Positions 14,016 through 55,251 of a stretch of 64,000 nt of DNA are shown in pieces. The position numbers were made by a program, and so were the translations under genes. Below the pieces are notes generated by a model, which was not told where the DNA came from, searched no databases, and worked only from the letters and a program-made list of their open reading frames with translations. How positions within the stretch are numbered: position 1 is the first letter of the stretch; each line of letters opens with the position of its first letter. The stretch comes from Prionailurus viverrinus. Taxonomy: Eukaryota. The stretch is taken from assembly GCF_022837055.1 (NCBI RefSeq), contig NC_062561.1, forward strand, positions 616,715-680,714, given 5' to 3'.

Positions 14016-14255
14016 GGAGGGTGCCTGGGTGGCTCAGTCGGTCGAGTGTCCGACTTCGGCTCAGGTTATGATCTCGCGGTCCGTGAGTTCAAGCCCTGCA
14101 TCGGGCTCTGTGCTGGCAACTCAGAGCCTGGAGCCTGTTTTGGATTCTGTGTCTCCCTCTCTCTCTGACCCTCCCCCGTCCATGCTCTGTCTCTCTCTGC
14201 CTCAAAAATAAATAAGCGTTAAAAAAAAAAAATTAAAAAAAAAAACAAACACATT
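14016..14255 (+). mobile_element. Carnivore SINE (near-consensus, probably young), plus
   Basis: gggtgcctgggtggctcagtcggtcgagtgtccgacttcggctcaggttatgatctcgcggtccgtgagttcaagccctgcatcgggctctgtgctggcaactcagagcctggagcctgttttggattctgtgtctccctctctctctgaccctcccccgtccatgctctgtctctctctgcctcaaaaataaataagcgttaaaaaaaaaaaa. Confidence 0.9.
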
Positions 14256-16977: not shown

Positions 16978-17154
16978 GGGCACCCAGGTGGCTCAGTTGG
17001 TTAAGTGCCCGACTCTTGATTTTGGCTCAGGTCATGATCTCATGTTTTGTGAAGTAGAGCCCTGCGTTGGGCTCTGCGCTGATGGCACGGAGCCAGTTTG
17101 GGATTCTCGCTCTCTGTCTCTCTCTGTCTCTCTCTGTCTCTCTCTGTCTCTGTC

Positions 17155-17199
<45 letters not shown>

Positions 17200-20285: not shown

Positions 20286-20885
20286 AAATATGACAAAAAT
20301 AATTAAACTTCTTATCTCAGAATATAGGCAAATAGTGAAGGACAAAAGACTACTTTAGCAATAGGAATAAATTTCTTAATATTCAATCTAATGTGATCAG
20401 ATTCAAAAAGACTACAAAAACACTGATAATCTCAGAAAACTTGATGTGTAATTTTATCTGGGAAGGGGAAGAAACCTTGTGTTTAAAAAATTATGACTGG
20501 AAATTTTATGATTAGCATTTTGCTAAATAAGTTCTTTCCAAAAGCTGATCTCTCCAAAGGAAACATATCTCCTTTATAGACCAGATTTTATTTTGGAATC
20601 TGGCCAAGAAGCAAGCCTTTGGACATAGAGAAATGCAGTCTTCCTGAGACACATCAAAAGTCAAGCAGTTCTGATAAATAATAATTTATAGTAAGCACAT
20701 GATATATGTTAGGTACCATATTGTGTATATAAATTGTATTATTTATGAGAATTTTAGAAATCTAAATGTTTGGTATGGTGCAGCCTCTTTAGACAAATGA
20801 TTGTCCAGAAATGCTGTCATCAGACTTTCTTGCTCTCAGGAAATGGTAGCTAAAACAAAATAGGCAGAATGGTAAACTCCTCCAG

Positions 20886-21105
20886 GGGTGCCTGGGTGGT
20901 TCAGTTGGTTAAGCATCTGACTTCAGCTCAGGTCATGATCTCATGGTTTGTGAGTTCGAGCCCCCCATCAGGCTCTGTGCTGACAGCTCAGGGCCTGGAT
21001 CCTGCTTCAGATTGTGTCTCCCTCTCTCTCTGCTTCTCCCCTGCTTGCACTCTGTCTCTCTCTCTTTCTCAAAAATAAATTAACATTAAAAAAAAAAAAG
21101 AATAG
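20886..21105 (+). mobile_element. Carnivore SINE, plus
   Basis: ggggtgcctgggtggttcagttggttaagcatctgacttcagctcaggtcatgatctcatggtttgtgagttcgagccccccatcaggctctgtgctgacagctcagggcctggatcctgcttcagattgtgtctccctctc...caaaaataaattaacattaaaaaaaaaaaag. Confidence 0.9.
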
Positions 21106-37907: not shown

Positions 37908-38127
37908 AATTTTTTTTTTTTTAACATTTATTTATTTTTGAGACAGAGAGAGACAGAGCATGAATGGGGGGAGGGCCAGAGAGAGAGGGAGACACAGTAT
38001 CTGAAGCAGGCTCCGGGCTCTGAGCTGTCGGCACAGAGCCTGATGCAGGGCTCGAACTCATGGATCGCGAGATCGTGACCTGAGCGAAGTCAGACGCTCA
38101 ACCGACTGAGCCACCCAGGCGCCCCGA
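37908..38127 (-). mobile_element. Carnivore SINE (near-consensus), minus
   Basis: tttttgagacagagagagacagagcatgaatggggggagggccagagagagagggagacacagtatctgaagcaggctccgggctctgagctgtcggcacagagcctgatgcagggctcgaactcatggatcgcgagatcgtgacctgagcgaagtcagacgctcaaccgactgagccacccaggcgcccc. Confidence 0.9.
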
Positions 38128-44250: not shown

Positions 44251-44276
44251 ATTTTATTAAAAATATTTTTTTGGGG

Positions 44277-44500
44277 GGCGCCTGGGTGGCGCAGTCGGTT
44301 AAGCGTCCGACTTCAGCCAGGTCACGATCTCGCGGTCCATGAGTTCCAGCCCCACGTCGGGCTCTGGGCTGATGGCTCGGAGCCTGGAGCCTGTTTCCGA
44401 TTCTGTGTCTCCCTCTCTCTCTGCCCCTCCCCCGTTCATGCTCTGTCTCTCTGTCCCAAAAATAAATAAAAAACATTGAAAAAAAAAATTTTTTTTAATA
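44277..44500 (+). mobile_element. Young carnivore SINE, same subfamily as the copy at 43316 (shared diagnostic substitutions)
   Basis: ggggggcgcctgggtggcgcagtcggttaagcgtccgacttcagccaggtcacgatctcgcggtccatgagttccagccccacgtcgggctctgggctgatggctcggagcctggagcctgtttccgattctgtgtctccctctc...caaaaataaataaaaaacattgaaaaaaaaaatttttttt. Confidence 0.9.
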
Positions 44501-44982: not shown

Positions 44983-45107
44983 ATTATCAGTTACAAGATG
45001 CCAAACCTTTCGGCAACATCAAGTCTGGCCTTCAGGATTTCTCTGGCAATTCAGTTCCTCTTGAGGAGGTTCACATCAAAGGAAGAATAATAGACTTTGT
45101 AGCCCAG
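44983..45107 (+). CDS. PARP4: PARP4 coding exon 14
   Basis: Acceptor tttaatatgtag|A; donor gcccag|GTatgt. Phase 1 to 0. Translates (D)YQLQDAKPFGNIKSGLQDFSGNSVPLEEVHIKGRIIDFVAQ. Human recalled: DYQLPDAKTSSSTKAGLQDASGNLVPLEDVHIKGRIIDTVAQ. Confidence 0.9.
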
Positions 45108-45214
45108 GTATGTCTTTGTGGGTTTATGATACTTTAAATGGATATGAGTCATAAATGACAATTTGATTATAGTTGCATGAATTAAAATGTGCATTTCTTT
45201 TTCTTTCATGTTTG

Positions 45215-45410
45215 TTTATTTATTTTGAGACAGAGAGAGAGAGAGACTTGTACAAGTGAAGGAGGGGCAGAGAGAGAGGGAGAGATGCCCAAGCAGGCTC
45301 CACGCTGAGCCCCAACACAGGGCTCGCTCTCACAACTGTGAGATCATGACCTGAGCTGAAATCAAAAGCCAGAGGCTCAATGAACTGAGCCACCCAGGCA
45401 CCCTGAAATG
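45215..45410 (-). mobile_element. Carnivore SINE (SINEC_c-like), minus
   Basis: tttgagacagagagagagagagacttgtacaagtgaaggaggggcagagagagagggagagatgcccaagcaggctccacgctgagccccaacacagggctcgctctcacaactgtgagatcatgacctgagctgaaatcaaaagccagaggctcaatgaactgagccacccaggcaccc. Confidence 0.85.
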
Positions 45411-45589
45411 TGCATTTCTAAAATTCGTTTATTCATTGAGTACCTACTACATACCGACTGTTCCGGGCTCTAGGCATGCAACAAGGAACAAAAGAAAAAC
45501 TCTGCCCTGATGGAGCATACATTTTATTGGGGGATAGGCAGTAAACATTGTAAATAAACAGAGTGCATCAAATGTAGATGGTGGTAGGT

Positions 45590-45725
45590 GCTAAAGAAGA
45601 AAGTCTAAGCAGGGGGAGCTGCAGGGGGGATGGGAGCCTCAGGAAGGGTGGGAGCCACAGGGAGGGTGGGAGACTGGTTGGGGGGGGGGAGGTGGGAGCC
45701 GCACAGGATGGGGTGTTTGAACTTA
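45590..45725 (+). repeat. G-rich block (GGGTGGGAG-type units): inverted (reverse-complement) version of the downstream C-rich array motif
   Basis: gggggagctgcaggggggatgggagcctcaggaagggtgggagccacagggagggtgggagactggttggggggggggaggtgggagccgcacaggatggggtg. Its reverse complement reads ...ctcccacctcccccccccaacc...ctcccaccctccctg..., resembling the array unit. Confidence 0.8.
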
Positions 45726-46039
45726 TAAGTAGGGTGGCCAAGAAGGCCTCACTGAGGTGACACCTGAGTACAGCCATGTAGGAAGTAGGGGACTAGGTAC
45801 GTGACCCGACCCCAGCAGCCCTCCTTCCCAAGCCCCCAGTGGAGCTGAGCCCAACTAACACCGCCTGCCTTCCGCTCCCACAGAGCAGCAGGGCCCTGTG
45901 CTCCTCACCCTTGCTAAAACAGCCAGCAACATCATTGCTGAGTCTGCTGTGGACTCCCATGGCGGGGAGTAGCAGGAGGACGTGGGCCCGCCAAGGCAGT
46001 ATGGTGCCTGCCTGCCTGGGCTGGGCAACAGCCTGGACC

Positions 46040-49000
46040 ACAGGAAGAGGCTGTCACACTGGCCCCACCCCCAGCCAGCGCACCACCTCCCCCCAGCCCT
46101 CCCATCAGCAGCGGCCAGCAAGCCCTCCCCACCACTGCCCCTCCCCCAGCCCTCCCACCACCTACCCCCAGGCCTCCCACCAGCAGGGGCAAGCAAGCCC
46201 TCCCCACCACTGCCCCCTCCCCCAGCAAGCCTACCCCCTCCCAGCCAGCCCACCTCCTCCCCTCCAGCCCTCCTACCACCTCCCTCCAGCCAGCCCACCA
46301 GTGCCAGCCAGCAAGCCCTCCCCACCACTGCCCCCACCCCCGGCCCTCCCACCAACTTCCCCCAGCCCTCCCACCACCTCCCCCCTACCCTCCCACCACC
46401 TGCCCCCCATCCAGCCCACCACCTCCCCCACAGCCAGCCCACCACCTCCCCCCAGCCCTCCCACGACCTCCCCCCCCCAGCCAGCCTACCACCTCCTCCC
46501 AGCCCTCCCACCACCTCCCGCCCAGCCAGCCCACCACCTCCCCCCCAACCCTCCCACCACCTCCCCCCCAGCCAGCCCACCACCTCCCCCCTCAGCCCTC
46601 CCACCACCTCCCTCCCAGCCAGCCTACCACCTCCCCCCCAGCCCGCCCACCACCTCCCCCCACAGCCAGCCCACCAATCCCCCCTCAGCCCTCCCACCAA
46701 CTCCCTCCCAGCCAGCCCACCACCTCCCCCCAGTTCTCCCACCACCTCCCCCCCAGCCAGCCCACCACCTTCCCCCTCAGCCCTCCCACCACCTCCCTCC
46801 CAGCCCGCCTACCACCTCCCCCCAGCCCGCCCACCACCTCCCCCCACAGCCAGCCCACCACCTCCCCCCTCAGCCCTCCCACCACCTCCCTCCCAGCCAG
46901 CCCACCACCTCCCCCCCAGCCCGCCCACCACCTCCCCCCACAGCCAGCCCACCACCTACCCCCTCAGCCCTCCCACCACCTCCCTCCCAGCCAGCCCACC
47001 ACCTCCCCCCAGTTCTCCCACCACCTCCCCCCAGCCCTCCCACCACCTCCCCCAGCCCTCCCACAACCTCCCCCCCAGCCAGCCCACCACCTCCCCCCAG
47101 TTCTCCCACCACCACCCCCCCCAGCCAGCCCACCACCTCCTCCCAGCCCTCCCACCACCTCCCCCACAGCCAGCCCACCACCTCCCCCCTCAGCCCTCCC
47201 ACCACCTCCCTCCCAGCCCGCTCACCACCTCCCCCCCAGCCCGCCCACCACCTCCCCCCACAGCCAGCCCACCACCTCCCCCCTCTGCCCTCCCACCACC
47301 TCCCTCCCAGCCAGCCCACCAGCCCCCCCCAGCCCGCCCACCACCTCCCCCCACAGCCAGCCCACCAATCCCCCCTCAGCCCTCCCACCAACTCCCTCCC
47401 AGCCAGCCCACCACCTCCCCCCAGTTCTCCCACCACCTCCCCCCCAGCCAGCCCACCACCTTCCCCCTCAGCCCTCCCACCACCTCCCTCCCAGCCAGCC
47501 CACCACCTCCCCCCAGCCCTCCCACGACCTCCCCCCCAGCCAGCCTACCACCTCCACCCAGCCCTCCCACGACCTCCCGCCCAGCGAGCCCACCACCTCC
47601 CCCCAACCCTCCCACCACCTCCCCCCCAGCAAGCCCACCACCTTCCCCTAGCCCTCCCACGACCTCCCCCCCACAGCCAGCCCACCACCTACCCCCTCAG
47701 CCCTCCCACCACCTCCCCCCACAGCCAGCCCACCACCTCCCCCCTCAGCCCTCCCAACACCTCCCTCCCAGCCAGCCCACCACCTCCCCCCCGTTCTCCC
47801 ACCACCTCCCCCCAGCCAGCCCACCACCTCCCCCCAGCCCTCCCACCACCTCCCCCCCAGCCAGCCTACCACCTCCTCCCAGCCCTCCCACCACCTCCCC
47901 CCCAGCCAGCCCACCACCTCCTCCCAGCCAGCCCACCACCTCCCCCCACAGCCAGCCCACCACCTCCCCCCTCAGCCCTCCCACCACCTCCCCCCAGCCA
48001 GCCCACCAGTGCCAGCCAGCAAGCCCTCCCCACCACTGCCCCCTCCCCCAGCCAGCCCACCACCTCCCCCCAGCCAGCCCACCACCTCCCCCCAGCCCTC
48101 CCACCACCTCCCCCCCAGCCAGCCCACCACCTCCTCCCAGCCCTCCCACCACCTCCCCCCCAGCCAGCCCACCACCTCCTCCCAGCCAGCCCACCACCTC
48201 CCCCCACAGCCAGCCCACCACCTCCCCCCTCAGCCCTCTCACCACCTCCCCCCAGCCAGCCCACCAGTGCCAGCCAGCAAGCCCTCCCCACCACTGCCCC
48301 CTCCCCCAGCCAGCCCACCACCTCCCCCCAGCCAGCCCACCACCTCCCCCCAGCCCTCCCACCACCTCCCCCCCAGCCAGCCCACCACCTCCTCCCAGCC
48401 CTCCCACCACCTCCCTCCCAGCCCTCCCACCACCTCCCCCCCAGCCAGCCCACCACCTCCCCCCTCAGCCCTCCCAGCACCTCCCTCCCAGCCAGCTCAC
48501 CACCTCCCCCCCAGCCCGCCCACCACCTCCCCCCACAGCCAGCCCACCACCTCCCCCCTCTGCCCTCCCACCACCTCCCTCCCAGCCAGCCCACCAGCCC
48601 CCCCCAGCCCGCCCACCACCTCCCCCCACAGCCAGCCCACCAATCCCCCCTCAGCCCTCCCACCAACTCCCTCCCAGCCAGCCCACCACCTCCCCCCAGT
48701 TCTCCCACTACCTCCCCCCCAGCCAGCCCACCACCTTCCCCCTCAGCCCTCCCACCACCTCCCTCCCAGCCAGCCCACCACCTCCCCCCAGCCGTCCCAC
48801 GACCTCCCCCCCAGCCAGCCTACCACCTCCTCCCAGCCCGCCCACAACCTCCCCCCCAGCCAGCCCACCACCTCCCCCCAGCCCTCCCACCACCTCCCCC
48901 CCAGCCAGCCCACCACCTCCTCCCAGCCCTCCCACCACCTCCCCCCCAGCCAGCCCACCACCTCCCCCCCAGCCAGCCCACCACCTCCCCCCACAGCCAG

Positions 49001-49500
49001 CCCACCACCTCCCCCCTCAGCCCTCCCACCACCTCCCCCCAGCCAGCCCACCAGTGCCAGCCAGCAAGCCCTCCCCACCACTGCCCCCTCCCCCAGCCAG
49101 CCCACCACCTCCCCCCAGCCAGCCCACCACCTCCCCCCAGCCCTCCCACCACCTCCCCCCCAGCCAGCCCACCACCTCCTCCCAGCCCTCCCACCACCTC
49201 CCTCCCAGCCCTCCCACCACCTCCCCCCCAGCCAGCCCACCACCTCCCCCCTCAGCCCTCCCACCACCTCCTCCCCAGCCGGCCCACCACCTCCCCCCAC
49301 AGCCCGCCCACCACCTCCCCCCACAGCCAGCCCACCACCTCCCCCCTCAGCCCTCCCACCACCTCCCCCCAGCCAGCCCACCAGTGCCAGCCAGCAAGCC
49401 CTCCCCACCACTGCCCCCTCCCCCAGCCAGCCCACCACCTCCCCCCAGCCCTCCTACCAGTGCCAGCCAGCAAGCCCTCCCCTTCTCTGACCTGCAGCTC
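46040..49500 (+). repeat. Large intronic C-rich tandem repeat array (minisatellite, about 3.4 kb; unit about 24 nt, dimer about 47 nt, with higher-order periodicity)
   Basis: About 140 copies of CCAGCC(A/C)GCCCACCACCTCCCCCC alternating with (T)CAGCCCTCCCACCACCTCCCTC. G and T are strongly depleted, so no stop codons occur in any + frame (ORF track: 1226, 1175 and 493 codon ORFs in the three + frames, and multiple Gly/Trp-rich ORFs on the minus strand). Punctuation motif gcccaccagtgccagccagcaagccctccccaccactgcccc recurs at about 46290, 48000, 48250, 49040, 49370, 49450. Lies inside the PARP4 intron between the exons at 44983-45107 and 55120-55251. Confidence 0.92.
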
Positions 49501-51871
49501 TCCAGGTAGCTGCTTATGAGTACAGGATACTTTCTCAGACCTGAGTGGACACAGAAGAGGAAGCAGGTGTGCAGTTTGGGATCCTGTGAAGAGAGGGATT
49601 CTTGGACAGCCCTTCTGCCCTGTGCACTCCATTTCCACCCTGCCTCCCCTGGCCCCCAGCCTCAGTGCAGCTCGCACAGTACCCTGACCCCCTACTAATC
49701 GCAGAGAAGGGTGTGGAAGAGGAGAAGAGTGAGGTTGGAAGCCTGAGCAAGTGACAATGGAGCAGGGGAAGGAGAGCCACTTGGGACTGGCATTTAAAGC
49801 CCTGGGCCGGGACGGGGTGGGGGTCAAAAGGTTAGGGCCTGGTCGGTATTCACTGTCACTGGTAGAGGTACCACTTGTGAGGGTGATCCCTAGGGGAGTG
49901 TGGAACCCCCCCCCCATTCTTACTGTTTCTCTTGGCTTCACTTTTGTCCCCCTCTCCCTGACTTGGTGCTCTAGTGCACCTCATTAGGGTTTGTGACCAG
50001 AGTTTGGATGAGTTTGAATTTGAATGAATTGAGTTTGTATTTCTAGCACCCAGGTTTTTACATGTTTGAGGTTTGGGGTTTTTTTAGGTTGTCATCCTTG
50101 ATAAAGGAAGTGTATCCATCAAAAAGAAAAAAAGAAATAGGGAGCTAAACCATGTGAACATCTGGGGGTTGCTCATTCCAGGTAGAGGCAACAGCACGTG
50201 CAAGGGCCCTGTGGTGGGAGCAAACCTGATATGGTCAGGGACATCAAGGAGGCCACTGTGGCTAGAGCAGAGTGGAAGGGGAAAGCATGGCAGCAGATTG
50301 GGTCAGAAAGGTGGTGTGGGGGTCAGTTCACGTCAGGATACAGGACAAGTTATTGTCCTTAATTCTGAGTAAAATGGAAGCCACTAGAAGATGTTTGGCA
50401 GAAGAGTGATATGATCTGACCTGTTTTATTAGGATCATACTAGCTGCCATGTTGAGAACAGTATGAAGAAGGTCAGTTAGGAGACATCTTAGGTCACGTG
50501 GTCTGGAAAACAGACTCCAGGTAAAAATTTGTTCTCAGGAAGCTTGTTGGGAAATGCTCCTGTAAGAGAGTGAGGGAATCAGGACGTGGCAAAAGGAGAC
50601 ATTGAGCCGTGACACCTCTAGCATATGATGCATATGAGTCCTCAGATGATCTCAGAGGGAGCTCCGAAGCTGGGATAGCCCCTCAGAGATATTCTGAATT
50701 GAGGCCGGGTGCCAAGCTTTGTGCTCACAGAGGCATCAGTCACTGGATGTGGCTGCCTGTGGAGAGGGGTCGTAATCTTGGGTGAGGCGGTCCACCTTTT
50801 GCTGAGTACCGTCTGGGGAAGGACTCAGCAGAGGACACTCCCAGCAGCCTTGGTCCTGAAAAGGACATCCGGGAGCATGTCATAGCACCAAACGTAGGTG
50901 ACCATTCAAGCGATTCGTTCAAGGATGACGGTTAACAATGGGGGTGGGTAAGAAATGATTTGGTCTGGCAAAGGATTGAAGGTAGAACCAGTAAGATTTG
51001 CTGATGGACGTGAACACTAGAGAAAGTCGAGTGTCAAGAACGAAGCCAAGGTTCTTGTCCTGAGCAACTAGAAGGACTGATCACGTTTGCACGTACTGAA
51101 GTGGGGAAGGTGGCAGGAGGGCAACTTGGGAGGACTATCAGGAAGCCATCCTCGGTCGTGTCACACGAGACGCTGATGTCCAGATGTAAAAGCTGAGCAG
51201 GAAGTTAGGCATTTGAGTCTAGAGTGCAGGGAAAAGTTAATTCCCAGCGGAGTCATAACTGGGGGAGTTGCCAGCACTCAGGTTCTGTTTAAAGTCCTGT
51301 GTCCCCTTTAGATCACCAAGAGAATAGGTAGGGAGGGAAGACCAACATGCCGTGGGTTGGGAGAGGAGGCTGGTCAGCAAAGGAGACAGAGAGGGAATGG
51401 CCAGTGAGACACCCGGGGGGCCTGGGTCTCCGGAAAGAATGATGATTCTGTCAAAGGCTGCTGACGGATCAGGTAGAGTCAAGGCCGAGACTTGACCTTT
51501 GGATTCAGCAATAAGGAGATCATCGACAATCTTGACAATTGCCTCTTTGATGGAGCAGTGGGTGTGAAAGCCTAATTAGAGTGAGTGCCAAAGAAAATGG
51601 GGGGAAAGAGGAGAGGAAATGAGACCGTGGCTGAAGAGAAGTGGAATCAGATTGGGTTCCTTTTTCTTTTAAGATGAGAGAAATCATGGCACGTGTGTGA
51701 GCCAGTGCACGAGAAAAACACTGATGATCCAGTAGAGGGAGTGTGAGATGTGTGTTCACACCCCCAGGCAGTAACTCAGTTCTGACACTGTCTGCCTGGA
51801 AATAGTGTCCAGTCCCACAGGTTAGTCCCGCAGGACTGCCCTCCTCCCCTGCTGTCACTTCAGAGGCTGGT

Positions 51872-51985
51872 CCCGGGTCCCACAGAGCCTGATGCGGGGC
51901 TCTAACTCAGGAATTGCGAGATCATGACCTGAGCCGAAGTCAGCCACTTAACTGACTGAGCCACCCAGGCGCCCCTCCAGAAGTC
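51872..51985 (-). mobile_element. Carnivore SINE, truncated, minus
   Basis: ggtcccacagagcctgatgcggggctctaactcaggaattgcgagatcatgacctgagccgaagtcagccacttaactgactgagccacccaggcgcccc. Confidence 0.85.
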
Positions 51986-52929
51986 ACCTCTCTAACATAA
52001 ACTCGGATGTGGTTGAAAGGGGTTTGTTATGAGTATGGAGATGCTCACATTGTTCTTCTCACTTGGGAGATGCTGAGGGCTGTGGGAGCTCTGTGCGAGA
52101 AACAGGCACGAAGACCGAATACGTATTTCTTGTTCTAAATCACAGTGGCACAGCGGGGAGTGGTACCCCTTCTGTAGCAGGGGCGAGGGGGAGAGGTAAT
52201 GCTCAAGTGCCGTGCTGGGCCGCAGCCAGAAGTTCACAGCTAGTGCCCCCAAGGTCATGGGACAGAAAGTCAAGCTCATGGGCACACATGCGGGTCAACT
52301 GCCAGTGTGCCGTGAAGGTTGTTTTCTAAGATTTGACCTCATCGTTGGCTCCTAACACTAAAAACTGCACTGAACGGCTATCAAGACCTCTTAGGAAGAT
52401 AAAAATATCTGAGTCTGGTATTGGGATATTCCTCTCTCTGCAGAGGGAAATCAGATTACCTGTCACGGTCACCTTAAACTGGGGAAATGGGTATGGCAGG
52501 TGGAGCGGGTGTGCTGTGTGTGATATTCGTACTAGTTTGCATACATCCGATCATTGCCTTCCGGCCGCTCTGATCCAAACCCTCATCCCAGAGGCGATTC
52601 AGGGAAATGTCATAGACTTTGTCTCTGTCCTGGTGTGGACTCCTTGTAAATGTTCTACTATATATTAATCTCTTTGGAGCCACGTAGGAGCTGTGACCCC
52701 ATGGTTACCACTTCCTATGAGTCAGGCCCTGGATTGAGTTTTTCACAGGCTGTATTTAATTCTCCCCAAAACTCTGTGAAGTGGCCGCTGTGATTATGCC
52801 CATTGTTTAGATGAGGGATCTGATGTGCGGAGATGTTAACTGTATGATAAAGCACAGATTTCAACGCAGATCATTGTGACTCGCGAGGCCAGCCTCCTCA
52901 ACCGGCGGTCTAGCGCAGAGAATCTGGAG

Positions 52930-53080
52930 TTCGAAAGACTTAGCTTCATATCCTCGCTCATTCTATTCTAGCTCTACGACCTTGAGGAAATTATTTAACT
53001 TCTTTGTGCCTCAGTTTCCTCATATGTAAAATTGTGAGGATTAAATATAATGAATGTAAAGTAGGGCATTTTTTCATAAG
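52930..53080 (+). mobile_element. MIR SINE
   Basis: cttgaggaaattatttaacttctttgtgcctcagtttcctcatatgtaaaattgtgaggattaaatataatgaatgtaaagtagggcat is the canonical MIR 3' core. Confidence 0.75.
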
Positions 53081-54149
53081 CAGTAGATACAAAACAAATG
53101 GTGATTATGTTAAAAGGAGAGTCATGTATACATTACTGTGGATTAGAAAACTTCTGCCATTTGACATTTTAAACCCGATGAAGATTTTTTCCATGGGGAA
53201 GTTTGCCCAAAAAATAACTCCTGATTTAGCAGTGAATTTTCCACTAATTTGTGATTAGACAGCCGGCCTGTAGGTTGACTTTGAATATCCAAACAGAGGC
53301 CCAAGAGCAGGGACTTGTATATTCATGGCTCACTTACTTGACTCTTAGAATGAGTTTAATGTTTTTAGTTTAGTAATAAAACTAAAATAGTAGTTTCATC
53401 TGAAGGAGGAAAATTAAGATGTCAAAAATTAGTACCACTGTATTTATTTCTCTTCTAAGACCTAGTAAAAATACTTTTATCATCATTATCAAATATTCCT
53501 TGCTTTCTGAGTGCCCAGTCATACAATTACAGAGAGAGTGAAGCTGCCATAGGCCTAACCCCTGGGAGCTCCCATGCGAAGACAGACCTGCTGACTAGAT
53601 GCAGGCAGGACATGCACAGAGGAGGATGAAAACATTAACCTAAACCAAAAGACAGTTAGACAGTGATCCTATCCATCAGTCACAGGCGGAGCGTAGGTGC
53701 CCTTGCGGGGTTTGGTAAAACTGGATATCCTAGAGACAGATGAAGAGAGTTCCATGCACGGGAGCGCGTGATAGCCTCCTGGTCAGCGATCTGTGTGACT
53801 CCTCTGCCGGGTGCTCTCTGACCTTCTACAATGGCTTGGAGTCACCAGACACCCAAGAAACTCTGGGATTCAATCCTTTGGGGCTATCTTGGGCCATGGC
53901 CAGTCCCCTGTTCCAGGGAGCTGCCTGGTGAGCAGATGGCTGCCACCAGCTGGTGAGGCCTTTGTTTGAAGCACCCTGGAGGGTGCGGACCTGCTGATTT
54001 GGAGAAAATCAAATTCTTTTTTAAATGGATGTGCCTTGAATTTTTTTCTCTGGTGTGGCACATTTTTTCTCTGGGGGCAGCCCAGTTTACTGTGAATCTG
54101 GTTGTGGACAGCTTTTTTGTATAAGTTCATAACCTTTATTCTTTTTTGT

Positions 54150-54348
54150 TTTGTTTTATTTGTTTATTTTGAGAGAGAAAGAGAGCAAGCAGGGGAGGGG
54201 CAGAGAGAGAGGGAGACAGAATCCCAAGCAGGCTCCGTGCTGTCAGCTCAGAGCCTGAAGAAGGGTTCGATCTCATGAACCATGAGATCATGACCTGAGT
54301 CTAGATCAAGACTCAGACATTTAACAGACTGAGCCACCCAGCCATCCC
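54150..54348 (-). mobile_element. Carnivore SINE, minus
   Basis: ttttgagagagaaagagagcaagcaggggaggggcagagagagagggagacagaatcccaagcaggctccgtgctgtcagctcagagcctgaagaagggttcgatctcatgaaccatgagatcatgacctgagtctagatcaagactcagacatttaacagactgagccacccagccatccc. Confidence 0.85.
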
Positions 54349-55119
54349 ACCTTTATTCTTTTTAATTTTTCATTTCACTCTCTTCCCAGAGGTTATTAAT
54401 GACAAATCGTTACATATTTTTTCCTCATTATTGCCACATGTTTAAATGTTACTGTTTATTATATGTCTAGGTGTTTTGTTTTGTTTTGTTAATTTTCAAA
54501 TGTTTAAAGACTGGCCTTTTCTTAAGCAAGGGAGTGATGTGATGAACACAGTCCATTTAGTAAAATTAATCTGATAGGAATAGGGACAGCATGTAGGAGT
54601 GGAAAAGAGTTGATTCAGGAGTCGTCTAGACAGGAAGAAATGAGCATGGATGAGAAAACCCATGGAGGGCTGTGCACAGAGAGGTAAAGGAAGAAGTGCC
54701 AAGACCTGAAAACAGGCCAGATATAAGAACCCTTCTGGAATAGTGTCTGGGCCCATGTGACACCAAGGAGAGATCAAGATCCACACATGAAGGGACATTG
54801 TGTTGCCGCCTTAATGGAAGTTGCATTGCTTCTGTTAAGCCATTGTTTACAATATTGTAATACTAGTGACTTTTATTCTAGCCATGTGTGTATGAATTTC
54901 CTAAAGATGTAGCTACTATGTTTTATAATGTAACATGGACTCTACACCATAACTGTAGAATGCTCTAGCCACTGAAGCCAGGATTGGGAGTTTGAGGGAC
55001 ATGATGCAAATTCAAGCAATTGAAAGAAAATATACATTGTAGTTTCCGTTAATAGTTGTTCCTGCAAATGTTGTTCCATATGGTTTCATCAAGTACATGG
55101 ATTTTTTGTTCTTCTTCAG

Positions 55120-55251
55120 GTCATTGTTTTTCAGACATACACAAATCAAAGTTCTGTGCCCATTGAGGCAAAATATATTTTTCCCTTGGATGATAAGGCA
55201 GCTGTCTGTGGTTTTGAAGCATTCATCAATGGGAAACACATAGTAGGAGAG
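55120..55251 (+). CDS. PARP4: PARP4 coding exon 15 (start of VIT domain)
   Basis: Acceptor tgttcttcttcag|G; donor ggagag|GTaagg. 132 nt, phase 0-0. Translates VIVFQTYTNQSSVPIEAKYIFPLDDKAAVCGFEAFINGKHIVGE. Human recalled: VIVFQTYTNKSHVPIEAKYIFPLDDKAAVCGFEAFINGKHIVGE. Confidence 0.93.

Follow-up and report, generated by a model that had tools for sequence, protein, structure and literature searches.

At least 23% of the minisatellites and satellites in the human genome have been reported to originate from mobile elements, with subsequent growth by local duplication (PMC3389668). The instability of the human CEB1 minisatellite depends on its G4 motifs (PMC2673046), and in ABCA7 both lower expression and exon skipping are correlated with the length of an intronic VNTR (PMC5954066). 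The VNTR composites SVA and LAVA are described as mobilised by LINE-1 (PMC4432496). Here we describe an array of an ordinary element class and of unusually traceable origin in a window of 64 kb, the whole stretch of DNA that was analysed. It is very probably a non-coding, GC-rich, strand-asymmetric minisatellite that arose inside a sense-oriented LAMTOR1 processed pseudogene, within an intron of PARP4. The features, all on the forward strand, are as follows.

44983-45107 (+): PARP4 coding exon 5' of the intron (…DYQLQDAKPFGNIKSGLQDFSGNSVPLEEVHIKGRIIDFVAQ), with donor gtatgt from 45108; tblastn, human PARP4 query aa 597-638, 74% identity
45108-55119 (+): PARP4 intron, 10 kb, phase 0, housing array and pseudogene; from exon boundaries
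45502-45792 (+): old interspersed repeat, 5' part; alignment to a working consensus
45782-45792 (+): candidate 5' target-site duplication GAAGTAGGGGA, matching GAAATAGGGA at 9/11 positions
45793-50139 (+): LAMTOR1 processed pseudogene, a 5'-truncated retrocopy of ~4.35 kb bearing the array; homology, old-repeat collinearity, hallmarks
45808-46056 (+): 5' arm, LAMTOR1 codons ~24-106; phmmer, tblastn
45839-49519 (+): 1226-codon ORF, shifted by +1 from the reading frame that the 5' arm shares with LAMTOR1; compositional by-product
45982-49509 (+): 1175-codon ORF, LAMTOR1 frame at both ends, beginning only past the in-frame TAG at 45970
46057-49482 (+): minisatellite; TRF, unit census, pattern search, unit-type map
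46057-49482 (+): unit types A CAGCCAGCCCACCACCTCCCCCC and B CAGCCCTCCCACCACCTCCCCCC, minor types G and F, long type L; unit-type map
46057-46420 (+): oldest, most degenerate part of the array, 70-75-nt units resembling the whole 21-residue LAMTOR1 segment; TRF period 75 at 46057-46251
47129-47782 (+): first copy of an internal duplication of 655 bp, the second at 48403-49053; self-BLAST, 96.2% identity, four 1-2 nt indels
49457-49482 (+): last copy of the LAMTOR1-derived 26-mer CCAGTGCCAGCCAGCAAGCCCTCCCC (QVLASEPIP codons), running straight into unique FSDLQ codons
49483-49589 (+): 3' arm, LAMTOR1 codons ~125-161 (FSDLQLSR / frameshift / AAYEYRILSQT*VDTEEEAGVQFGIL); phmmer, tblastn, frame check
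49590-50099 (+): probable LAMTOR1 3' UTR remnant, between parental stop and tail, with no long ORF
50100-50105 (+): GATAAA, a variant hexamer resembling a polyadenylation signal and putatively acting as one, ~15 nt ahead of the tail
50120-50139 (+): A-rich tail CAAAAAGAAAAAAAGAAATA, degenerated from a poly(A)
50134-50143 (+): candidate 3' target-site duplication GAAATAGGGA
50139-50475 (+): old interspersed repeat, continuation; working consensus 216-562, 71% identity, E 1e-50
55120-55251 (+): PARP4 coding exon 3' of the intron (VIVFQTYTNQSSVPIEAKYIFPLDDKAAVCGFEAFINGKHIVGE; VIT domain); homology, tblastn

In this assembly the array holds ~139 units of 22-24 nt, with a modal length of 23. TRF reports it as a single array at 46236-49459 (period 23, 138.9 copies, 79% matches), gives 45 nt x 68 copies as a second period, and extends its limits to 46057-49482 through degenerate outer units of 70-75 nt; no other large tandem array was found in the 64-kb window. 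With up to two mismatches, CAGCCNNCCCACCACCTCCC occurs 122 times, always within 46072-49443, and never in shuffles. The base content of 46040-49500 is 66% C, 16.6% A, 8.9% T and 8.5% G, and of the 307 Ts 260 precede a C, a bias on which the earlier note on this DNA had remarked. Three other descriptions in that note have to be revised. The unit is not a fixed 24-nt, 8-codon one: spacings of 22, 23 and 24 nt make up 37, 48 and 28 of 134, and 99 of the 134 are not divisible by 3. Nor is the array near-perfect, the 129 units of the census falling into 54 distinct variants with TRF matches of 79-83%. Stop codons, said never to occur, are nearly absent, with a TAG at 47649 and a TGA at 49488 in the array region.

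Mismatches per 19 nt reach 2.47 in 46057-46420, versus 0.4-0.9 in the rest of the array. Besides the 655-bp duplication, self-BLAST pairs 47798-48266 with 48056-48525 (96.4%) and 48047-48476 with 48832-49263 (98.6%). It is important to consider that long GC-skewed arrays with 96-98.6% identical blocks of 0.4-0.65 kb are difficult to assemble, and collapse or spurious expansion could have left the length or internal order wrong. We regard such an artefact as very unlikely: the map of the variant units is ordered and non-random, both array junctions are unique and pass in phase into LAMTOR1 sequence, and the sequence contains no Ns.

The ORF lengths given previously (1226, 1175 and 493 codons on the forward strand, up to 296 on the reverse) were reproduced, and the two longest are the first argument for a coding array, either as an outsized PARP4 cassette exon for a proline-rich stretch or as an independent gene for a proline-rich protein. 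A plausible acceptor at 45883 (ctcccacag|AGC), a donor-like CAG|GTAGCT at 49505/49506, a commonest dimer span of 45 nt and the 1175-codon ORF, which begins and ends in the LAMTOR1 frame and so implies a net length of the array divisible by 3, point the same way. We nevertheless give this reading almost no chance. The great length of the ORFs is due to a unit nearly devoid of T or G in contexts that make TAA, TAG or TGA, and in first-order Markov sequences with the dinucleotide content of the array, which contain a mean of 7.25 stops, the longest open stretch averages 912 codons; stretches of at least 1100 codons appear in 28% of the simulations and two fully open frames in 2.3%. The ORF length is not beyond chance given the composition. 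The repeat cores are spread evenly over the three frames (48/46/41), the longest same-phase run is four units, no long-range frame keeping across the units was found, and all 12 indels among the recent internal duplicates are of 1-2 nt and shift the frame. Two-unit spans are divisible by 3 in 46.6% of cases, above one third, an excess that we attribute to the modal 22+23 dimer and not to coding constraint. An exon at 45884-49505 would measure 3622 nt, which is not divisible by 3, within a phase-0 intron, and three stops in the LAMTOR1 frame lie 5' of the array. For the array, Pfam gave no match and a word-indexed comparison with 5.8 billion proteins none at E <= 1e-3; of 1.84 billion representatives searched with HMMER, a single one matched (E 6.6e-4), and nothing reached E <= 1e-10. 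No meaningful homologue emerged from these searches. The array is real but non-coding and its giant ORFs are a by-product of base composition, in agreement with the previous view of a large intronic minisatellite rather than a gene.

The PARP4 exons proposed on either side of the array stand as well. Both have proper splice sites, and their ends (...IIDFVAQ and VIVFQTYTN) are neighbours in the working human PARP4 query (aa 638/639), which is supported by the strength of its alignment. Database PARP4 proteins of vole and bird join ...FVAQ directly to the VIVFQTYTN exon, again contrary to a coding cassette, and PARP4 homologues in the databases carry PF00644, PF13757 and PF08487. The orthologous vole intron is only ~2.7 kb long, without such an array.

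The unique arms on either side of the array represent a processed pseudogene of LAMTOR1, an origin missed by the earlier note. In phmmer searches of PDB sequences both arms match LAMTOR1 chains, with E 1.7e-19 for the 5' arm (residues 24-110 of 6b9x_A) and E 4e-7 to 1.3e-6 for the 3' arm (LAMTOR1 residues 117-160). The tblastn comparison of the 5' arm (E 2.6e-21) used a working human LAMTOR1 query validated by alignment strength, PDB sequences and Pfam only; the Pfam LAMTOR family PF15454 scores 19.5 bits on this arm, under its 25-bit cut-off, and gives no hit with stops written as X. Identity to human LAMTOR1 is 45/82 amino acids (~55%), and the LAMTOR1 frame is broken by a TGA at 45802, just upstream of the arm, a TAA at 45856 and a TAG at 45970. 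The 3' arm has a 1-nt deletion near 49507 and retains the parental TGA at 49587-49589. Homology of the repeat to a known protein had been named beforehand as a sign of coding; the homology exists, to LAMTOR1, and what it marks is a pseudogene remnant and not coding sequence.

The retrocopy interrupts an old interspersed repeat, which we take to be LINE-2-like. Excision of 45793-50138 leaves flanks collinear with the working consensus, which is supported by alignment strength (score 206.5 versus a shuffle maximum of 49.5; BLAST pieces at E 1e-10 and 1e-50). The candidate target-site duplication is imperfect (9/11) and overlaps the A-rich tail, and its two copies coincide when placed on the consensus of the old repeat. 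The pseudogene has the same orientation as PARP4.

Sequence comparison shows LAMTOR1 codons ~105-124, a proline-coding segment of 21 residues, to be the source of the array units. The segment is rich in C and quasi-repetitive within itself (CCAGCCAGCCC... / CCACCACTGCC...), and functional LAMTOR1 carries it in one copy in the PDB sequences. Six exact copies of the 26-mer CCAGTGCCAGCCAGCAAGCCCTCCCC start at 46298, 48006, 48264, 49051, 49381 and 49457; the five internal ones run on into sequence derived from LPPLP..SQP, and periods of 70-75 nt are present at both ends of the array (TRF).

The succession of arm, VNTR, arm, A-tail and target-site duplication resembles SVA and LAVA in architecture, and the array might already have been large in the inserted RNA, as a 4.35-kb mobile SVA-like composite or as a copy of a VNTR-bearing transcript. 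This is highly improbable. The arms consist of ordinary LAMTOR1 mRNA sequence without transposon modules, the segment is single-copy in the functional gene, neither the arms nor the unit has a second copy in the window (nor has the 3' UTR remnant), and VNTR composites are reported as hominoid-specific (PMC4432496). Moreover, the internal duplicates (96.2-98.6% identical) are far younger than the heavily decayed arms, which supports ongoing turnover of the array.

We propose that growth inside the pseudogene proceeded in five steps. A 5'-truncated LAMTOR1 mRNA, starting near codon 23 and reaching to the poly(A), would have been reverse-transcribed into the old intronic repeat, presumably by LINE-1; its traces are the A-rich tail and the candidate duplication of the target site. 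The retrocopy then decayed, as its three in-frame stops, 1-nt frameshift and ~55% amino-acid identity attest. The proline-rich segment may next have been duplicated head to tail as a ~70-nt unit, from which a 22-24-nt deletion derivative, CAGCC(AG/CT/CG)CCCACCACCTCCCCCC, would have been amplified to ~139 copies. Later duplication of blocks of 258, 785 and ~1274 bp, visible at 96-98.6% identity, may have involved replication slippage, unequal sister-chromatid exchange or gene conversion.

The G-rich complement of the array is the PARP4 template strand, and the high G4 potential previously ascribed to it was borne out by G4Hunter: the array has a mean score of -1.85, |score| is at least 1.5 in 89.5% of 25-nt windows, and 76 of the 82 C-strand quadruplex motifs of the window lie within it. 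This strand is predicted to be strongly G4-prone and could hold ~76 tandem G-quadruplexes which, by analogy with CEB1, would promote replication-associated instability. For the sense RNA the folding energy is -6.3 kcal/mol per 300 nt, versus -101 for control intron sequence, and the pre-mRNA segment is by this model a nearly unstructured poly-C-rich tract.

Such properties, together with the sense orientation in an expressed gene and the ABCA7 precedent, would suit a functional cis-element of PARP4 whose length tunes either elongation, by way of G4s on the template strand, or splicing, by way of a poly-C platform for PCBP/hnRNP K and ~160 pyrimidine-rich CAG pseudo-acceptors; indeed, 162 CAGs follow at least 75% pyrimidines in the array versus 9 in the remaining intron. 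We consider this unlikely. The pyrimidine tracts have 9% U, versus 26-79% at real PARP4 acceptors, and the pseudo-acceptors are therefore poor U2AF-type sites; the vole intron lacks such an array, which is therefore not needed by PARP4; and an origin in a decayed pseudogene followed by recent block duplications fits neutral turnover. Most likely the array has no function and is a self-propagating neutral array, which may affect PARP4 transcription or splicing as a side effect.

The C-rich array (46057-49482, +) lies in a 10-kb PARP4 intron (45108-55119). The gene was traced by tblastn with a human PARP4 query; 18 collinear segments on the + strand, running from the start codon (16357) as far as 61515, cover human aa 1-808, with the exons in order on one strand and the BRCT, PARP catalytic and VIT regions represented. 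Proteins homologous to the exon translations bear the name PARP4 in the databases and contain PARP and VIT domains (PF00644, PF13757 and PF08487). The intron is bounded by two exons:

44983-45107, + strand: upstream PARP4 exon, ending ...IIDFVAQ, donor gtatgt
55120-55251, + strand: downstream PARP4 exon, acceptor ttcag, beginning VIVFQTYTN

Because the residues at the two exon edges (FVAQ / VIVFQ) are directly adjacent in PARP4 proteins, namely in the human sequence (aa 638/639) and in vole and bird database entries, the array is intronic and on the sense strand, as the earlier note had proposed. The intron is of phase 0, and the G-rich complement of the array is the PARP4 transcription template. 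The orthologous intron of the prairie vole (Microtus ochrogaster PARP4, L001 19572-22266), reached through a partial PARP4 protein, is about 2.7 kb long, compared with 10 kb in this genome; its divergence is such that alignment is limited to about 60 nt beside the exon and one marginal 100-nt match. No C-rich array or minisatellite and no LAMTOR1 relic were found in it, an absence in one rodent that says nothing on the timing of the array. The vole intron does carry (CT)n and (TA)n microsatellites.

Our analysis confirms that a large tandem array is present and supplies its period and its copy number as assembled. Tandem Repeats Finder (TRF) described 46236-49459 as 138.9 copies of a 23-nt period with 79% matches, or alternatively as 68 copies of a 45-nt period, and assigned periods of 75 nt and 70 nt to the outer, more degenerate zones (46057-46251 and 49124-49482, respectively). 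The unit pattern CAGCCNNCCCACCACCTCCC, with up to two mismatches, was matched 122 times between 46072 and 49443, always on the + strand, compared with 0 times in shuffled sequences. Base composition at 46040-49500 is 66% C, 16.6% A, 8.9% T and 8.5% G; across the array the GC content is 0.73-0.76 and the GC skew about -0.8. Two properties first attributed to the array did not hold: its units are not fixed at 24 nt, being 22, 23 or 24 nt long in roughly equal shares, and it is not near-perfect, since 54 distinct variants occur among 129 units, with recurring blocks in the unit-type map. Young internal duplicates form blocks of 655, 471 and 432 bp at 96.2, 96.4 and 98.6% identity, which at most supports allele-length polymorphism indirectly. 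Degeneracy is greatest in the first 400 bp at the 5' end (2.47 mismatches per 19 nt vs 0.4-0.9). We thus find head-to-tail units of 10-100 nt over at least 0.5 kb, GC richness with strand asymmetry, and variant repeats with higher-order duplications, all of which are features of minisatellites. The description of the array as a GC-rich, strand-asymmetric, non-coding intronic minisatellite, predicted to be prone to G-quadruplexes (G4s), is supported. No second tandem array of comparable size occurs elsewhere in the 64-kb window.

Stop triplets, first described as never occurring in the array, are nearly absent: one TAG (47649) and one TGA (49488) are present. The ORF sizes (1226, 1175 and 493 codons on the + strand, up to 296 codons on the - strand) are as first reported. 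In first-order Markov sequences simulated with the dinucleotide frequencies of the array, a mean of 7.25 stop triplets per 3.4 kb was obtained, and the longest open stretch averaged 912 codons, reaching at least 1100 codons in 28% of them. The long ORF is not beyond chance given the composition, and the repeat structure adds only little. The start of the conserved 12-nt core falls in frame 0 in 48 units, in frame 1 in 46 and in frame 2 in 41; of the 134 distances from one core to the next, 99 are not divisible by 3, and the longest single-frame run comprises 4 units. A coding period of 69 nt (3 x 23) was rejected, since the length of a three-unit span is divisible by 3 in just 21% of cases; 45-nt dimers are modestly in excess, which does not yield long-range frame keeping. 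All of the indels between young internal duplicates (12/12) are of 1 or 2 nt.

Pfam found no domain in four array ORFs; a word-indexed search of 5.8 billion proteins with ORF residues 701-1226 returned 8000 candidates, 0 of them at E <= 1e-3; and HMMER against 1.84 billion representative proteins gave a single match (E 6.6e-4). Exact-protein look-ups of the 1226-aa, 229-aa, 78-aa and 81-aa ORFs returned no record, and a protein search with the minus-strand ORF that spans the junction gave no match. If the best acceptor (45883) and the best donor (49505/6) bounded an exon, its length of 3622 nt would put it out of frame for a phase-0 intron. A protein-coding tandem repeat has a unit length divisible by 3, keeps to a single frame and has homologous proteins; the array shows neither of the first two, and the searches gave no meaningful homologue. 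A coding reading is rejected on the Pfam result, both protein searches and the frame tests. The earlier judgement that this is not a gene is upheld by the mixed frames, the 1-2-nt indels, the lack of meaningful homologues and an ORF length expected from composition. A false gene candidate is thereby removed from annotation, the 1226-codon ORF being an artefact of composition in a repeat that lies within a pseudogene within an intron.

The pseudogene was recognised through the arms, the unique sequences that flank the array (5' arm 45808-46056, 3' arm 49483-49589). The first clue was a short peptide of the 5' arm that matches LAMTOR1, the p18 subunit of Ragulator, among solved-structure sequences (E 4e-5). 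Against PDB sequences, the whole 5' arm matches 6b9x_A residues 24-110 (E 1.7e-19), and the 3' arm, read over one frameshift, matches LAMTOR1 residues 117-160 (E 4e-7 to 1.3e-6). The human LAMTOR1 sequence used for comparison is validated by the Pfam LAMTOR model, which scores it at E 2.7e-21; identity to it is 45/82 residues in one arm and 22/37 in the other, and this low identity implies an old copy. With stops replaced by parental residues, the arms score 19.5 bits with Pfam LAMTOR (PF15454), a consistent match albeit under the 25-bit cut-off, and Pfam found nothing in the joined arms with stops written as X. The parental LAMTOR1 gene is multi-exonic. The copy has no introns: residues 24 to about 106 are contiguous in 45808-46056, and about 125-161 in 49483-49589. 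It contains in-frame stops (TGA 45802, TAA 45856, TAG 45970) and a 1-nt deletion near 49507, and keeps the parental stop codon (49587-49589), downstream of which about 510 nt presumably represent the 3'UTR. Homology on both sides of the array, the intronless structure, the disabling mutations, an A-rich tail and an imperfect candidate target-site duplication identify a 5'-truncated processed pseudogene of LAMTOR1 (45793-50139, +), hereafter the retrocopy.

The insertion itself can be delimited in an old interspersed repeat that the retrocopy splits into two parts, one at about 45500-45792 and the other from 50139 on. We compared the sequence with an old mammalian repeat consensus, probably that of a LINE-2 3' region:

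45710-45792: old-repeat consensus 134-220, E 1e-10
50139-50475: old-repeat consensus 216-562, E 1e-50
50933-51133: old-repeat consensus 642-845, E 7e-22

When 45793-50138 was removed in silico, the joined flanks aligned collinearly over the junction and scored 206.5, whereas shuffles reached at most 49.5. From this restored collinearity it follows that the 4.35 kb comprising the array and its 264-bp and 657-bp unique arms is an insertion. Its ends carry the following elements:

50120-50139, + strand: A-rich tail CAAAAAGAAAAAAAGAAATA, with GATAAA 15 nt upstream
45782-45792 (GAAGTAGGGGA) with 50134-50143 (GAAATAGGGA): candidate target-site duplication, imperfect, 9/11 identical

The tail, the GATAAA and the putative bracketing duplication are, at the sequence level, hallmarks of LINE-1-type retroposition. 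The old repeat has a second break at 50476-50932, where consensus 562-642 corresponds to about 458 bp of the window. It also contains a G-rich 18-nt mini-array (GGGAGCCACAGGGAGGGT x 3.3, 45612-45698, +), 360 bp upstream of the array, whose 70-74% similarity to the reverse complement of the array units probably arises through composition alone.

Within the retrocopy, the array is placed exactly between LAMTOR1 residues ~110 and ~117, and it retains recognisable LAMTOR1 codons. A 26-mer, CCAGTGCCAGCCAGCAAGCCCTCCCC, which corresponds to the QVLASEPIP codons, occurs six times with zero mismatches:

46298, 48006, 48264, 49051, 49381 and 49457: copies of the 26-mer CCAGTGCCAGCCAGCAAGCCCTCCCC

The last copy (49457) continues directly into the unique FSDLQ codons, and the other five continue into ACCACTGCCCCCTCCCCCAGCCAGCCCACCA, a LAMTOR1-derived sequence also seen at the 5' junction. 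These continuations show that the primary duplication unit was a LAMTOR1 segment of 60-75 nt, whose periodicity survives as the 70-75-nt periods at both array edges. The dominant unit, of 22-24 nt, is a shorter version in which the SQPH part directly adjoins the PPLPP part, the exact route being a reconstruction. At both array ends the 1175-codon ORF (45982-49509) follows the frame of LAMTOR1, which means that the expansion added a net length divisible by 3; the chance of this is 1 in 3. Since internal blocks are 96.2-98.6% identical and the 5' end is degenerate, turnover went on long after the arms had decayed. The six mismatch-free 26-mers, compared with about 55% identity of the arms to the parent protein, suggest that recent duplication, or gene conversion that homogenised the copies, extended to the 3' junction itself.

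In summary, a copy of LAMTOR1 mRNA was retro-inserted into the old repeat within the PARP4 intron; the pseudogene decayed, its proline-rich segment was amplified in tandem, and block duplications came later. Amplification may have proceeded by replication slippage, unequal sister-chromatid exchange or gene conversion, possibly seeded by internal quasi-repeats of the LAMTOR1 segment, and G4s on the G-rich strand could have promoted instability, by analogy with the human minisatellite CEB1.

The retrocopy resembles ordinary processed pseudogenes in being an intronless mRNA copy with 5' truncation, stops and a frameshift, a 3'UTR, an A-rich tail and a target-site duplication; it differs in that some 20 codons, secondarily expanded in tandem, now account for about 79% of its length (3426 of 4347 bp). 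At least 23% of human minisatellites and satellites begin in mobile elements and expand by local duplication, and how most tandem repeats derived from retroelements are initiated reportedly lacks an explanation (PMC3389668). The PARP4 array likewise began inside retro-inserted sequence and grew by local duplication, but its source is the coding segment of a cellular mRNA in a processed pseudogene, not a transposable element. An SVA-type VNTR composite was also considered, since SVA and LAVA elements share the arrangement of unique arm, GC-rich VNTR, unique arm, poly(A) and target-site duplication, with LINE-1-type hallmarks. However, the arms in the PARP4 intron are plain LAMTOR1 mRNA instead of Alu-like or SINE-R modules, a 5' hexamer repeat is absent, neither the arms nor the unit recur elsewhere within the 64-kb window, and PMC4432496 describes such composites as hominoid-specific; this candidate was rejected. 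A scan of metagenome contigs with the unit pattern gave, among the matches listed, just single chance ones in GC-rich contigs. Our literature search found no paper on a LAMTOR1 pseudogene in PARP4, on a minisatellite or VNTR at this PARP4 locus, or on a minisatellite originating in a processed pseudogene.

The array resembles Jeffreys-type minisatellites (33.15 and 33.6 probe loci, MS1, MS32) as a kilobase head-to-tail array of 10-100-nt units with strong purine/pyrimidine strand asymmetry, a G-rich strand, interspersed variants and higher-order blocks. On the G strand GGAGGTGG occurs 102 times, followed by TGG and then GGCWGG; it equals the opening half (8 nt) of the Jeffreys core GGAGGTGGGCAGGARG as listed in PMC9069542. 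The full 16-nt core has 0 exact matches in the array, which places it outside the Jeffreys-core family, and further motifs are rare (3 chi, 6 chi-like and 1 human PRDM9 13-mer matches, the last thus essentially absent). It differs further in being interstitial and intronic, with an exactly known ancestor, the LAMTOR1 cDNA.

The high G4 potential attributed to the template strand is confirmed at the level of prediction. The mean G4Hunter score of the array is -1.85, with an absolute score of at least 1.5 in 89.5% of 25-nt windows compared with 1% outside it, and the array holds 76 of the 82 non-overlapping (C3+N1-7)x4 motifs on the + strand of the window, which are predicted G4 motifs on the - strand. 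Folding with G4s allowed also predicted them in the array, and sequences of the GGGGGGAGGTGGTGGGCTGGCTG type are candidate G4-forming oligonucleotides. The instability of CEB1 in yeast depends on G4 motifs and Pif1 (PMC2673046). Both CEB1 and the PARP4 array have a G-rich strand, with at least one G4 motif per unit in CEB1 and 76 predicted motifs here; the PARP4 array differs in its 23-nt unit of unrelated sequence and in being intronic, CEB1 being described as subtelomeric (PMC3486850). With a predicted G4 motif about every 45 nt on the template strand of an expressed gene, the 3.4-kb array is likely to be subject to length variation, stalling of replication or transcription, and assembly error.

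The sense RNA of the array is predicted to be nearly structure-free (-6.3 kcal/mol per 300 nt vs -101 for control intron sequence), and no Rfam families were found in the 64-kb window. The array contains 162 pyrimidine-rich CAGs, which are unlikely to be good acceptors because their tracts contain just 9% U. The length of the intronic VNTR of ABCA7 correlates with lower expression and exon skipping (PMC5954066). That VNTR is likewise a multi-kilobase tandem array in an intron of an expressed gene, unrelated in sequence to the PARP4 array. On this model, the array could conceivably act in felids or carnivores as a cis-modifier of PARP4 that is polymorphic in length, slowing elongation or diverting splicing according to allele length, either through template-strand G4s or through 3.4 kb of poly-C RNA that would serve as a platform and offer about 160 pseudo-acceptors; we regard this as improbable. 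A weaker version of the same reading treats the locus as a traceable, datable case of a minisatellite born from about 20 pseudogene codons. For repeat biology the locus offers a clean natural instance of a minisatellite being born, with an exactly known ancestor (LAMTOR1 cDNA, with one copy of the segment) and with 70-75-nt intermediates surviving at the edges. A comparison of carnivore genomes could reconstruct the steps and tempo of the expansion.

The window also contains about 35 tRNA-headed SINE copies (for example 44275-44397, 14019-14140, 38003-38125 and 45215-45405), with up to 92% identity to a carnivore CAN-SINE consensus, in agreement with a felid or other carnivore source; none lies inside the LAMTOR1 retrocopy (45793-50139). 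Two ARAGORN predictions, tRNA-Arg(tcg) at 14023-14108 and tRNA-SeC(tca) at 20890-20975, are not tRNA genes but coincide with the heads of SINEs at 14019-14140 and 20885-21008. A (TC)n microsatellite of about 92 bp (17105-17196) lies beside a SINE tail in PARP4 intron 1.
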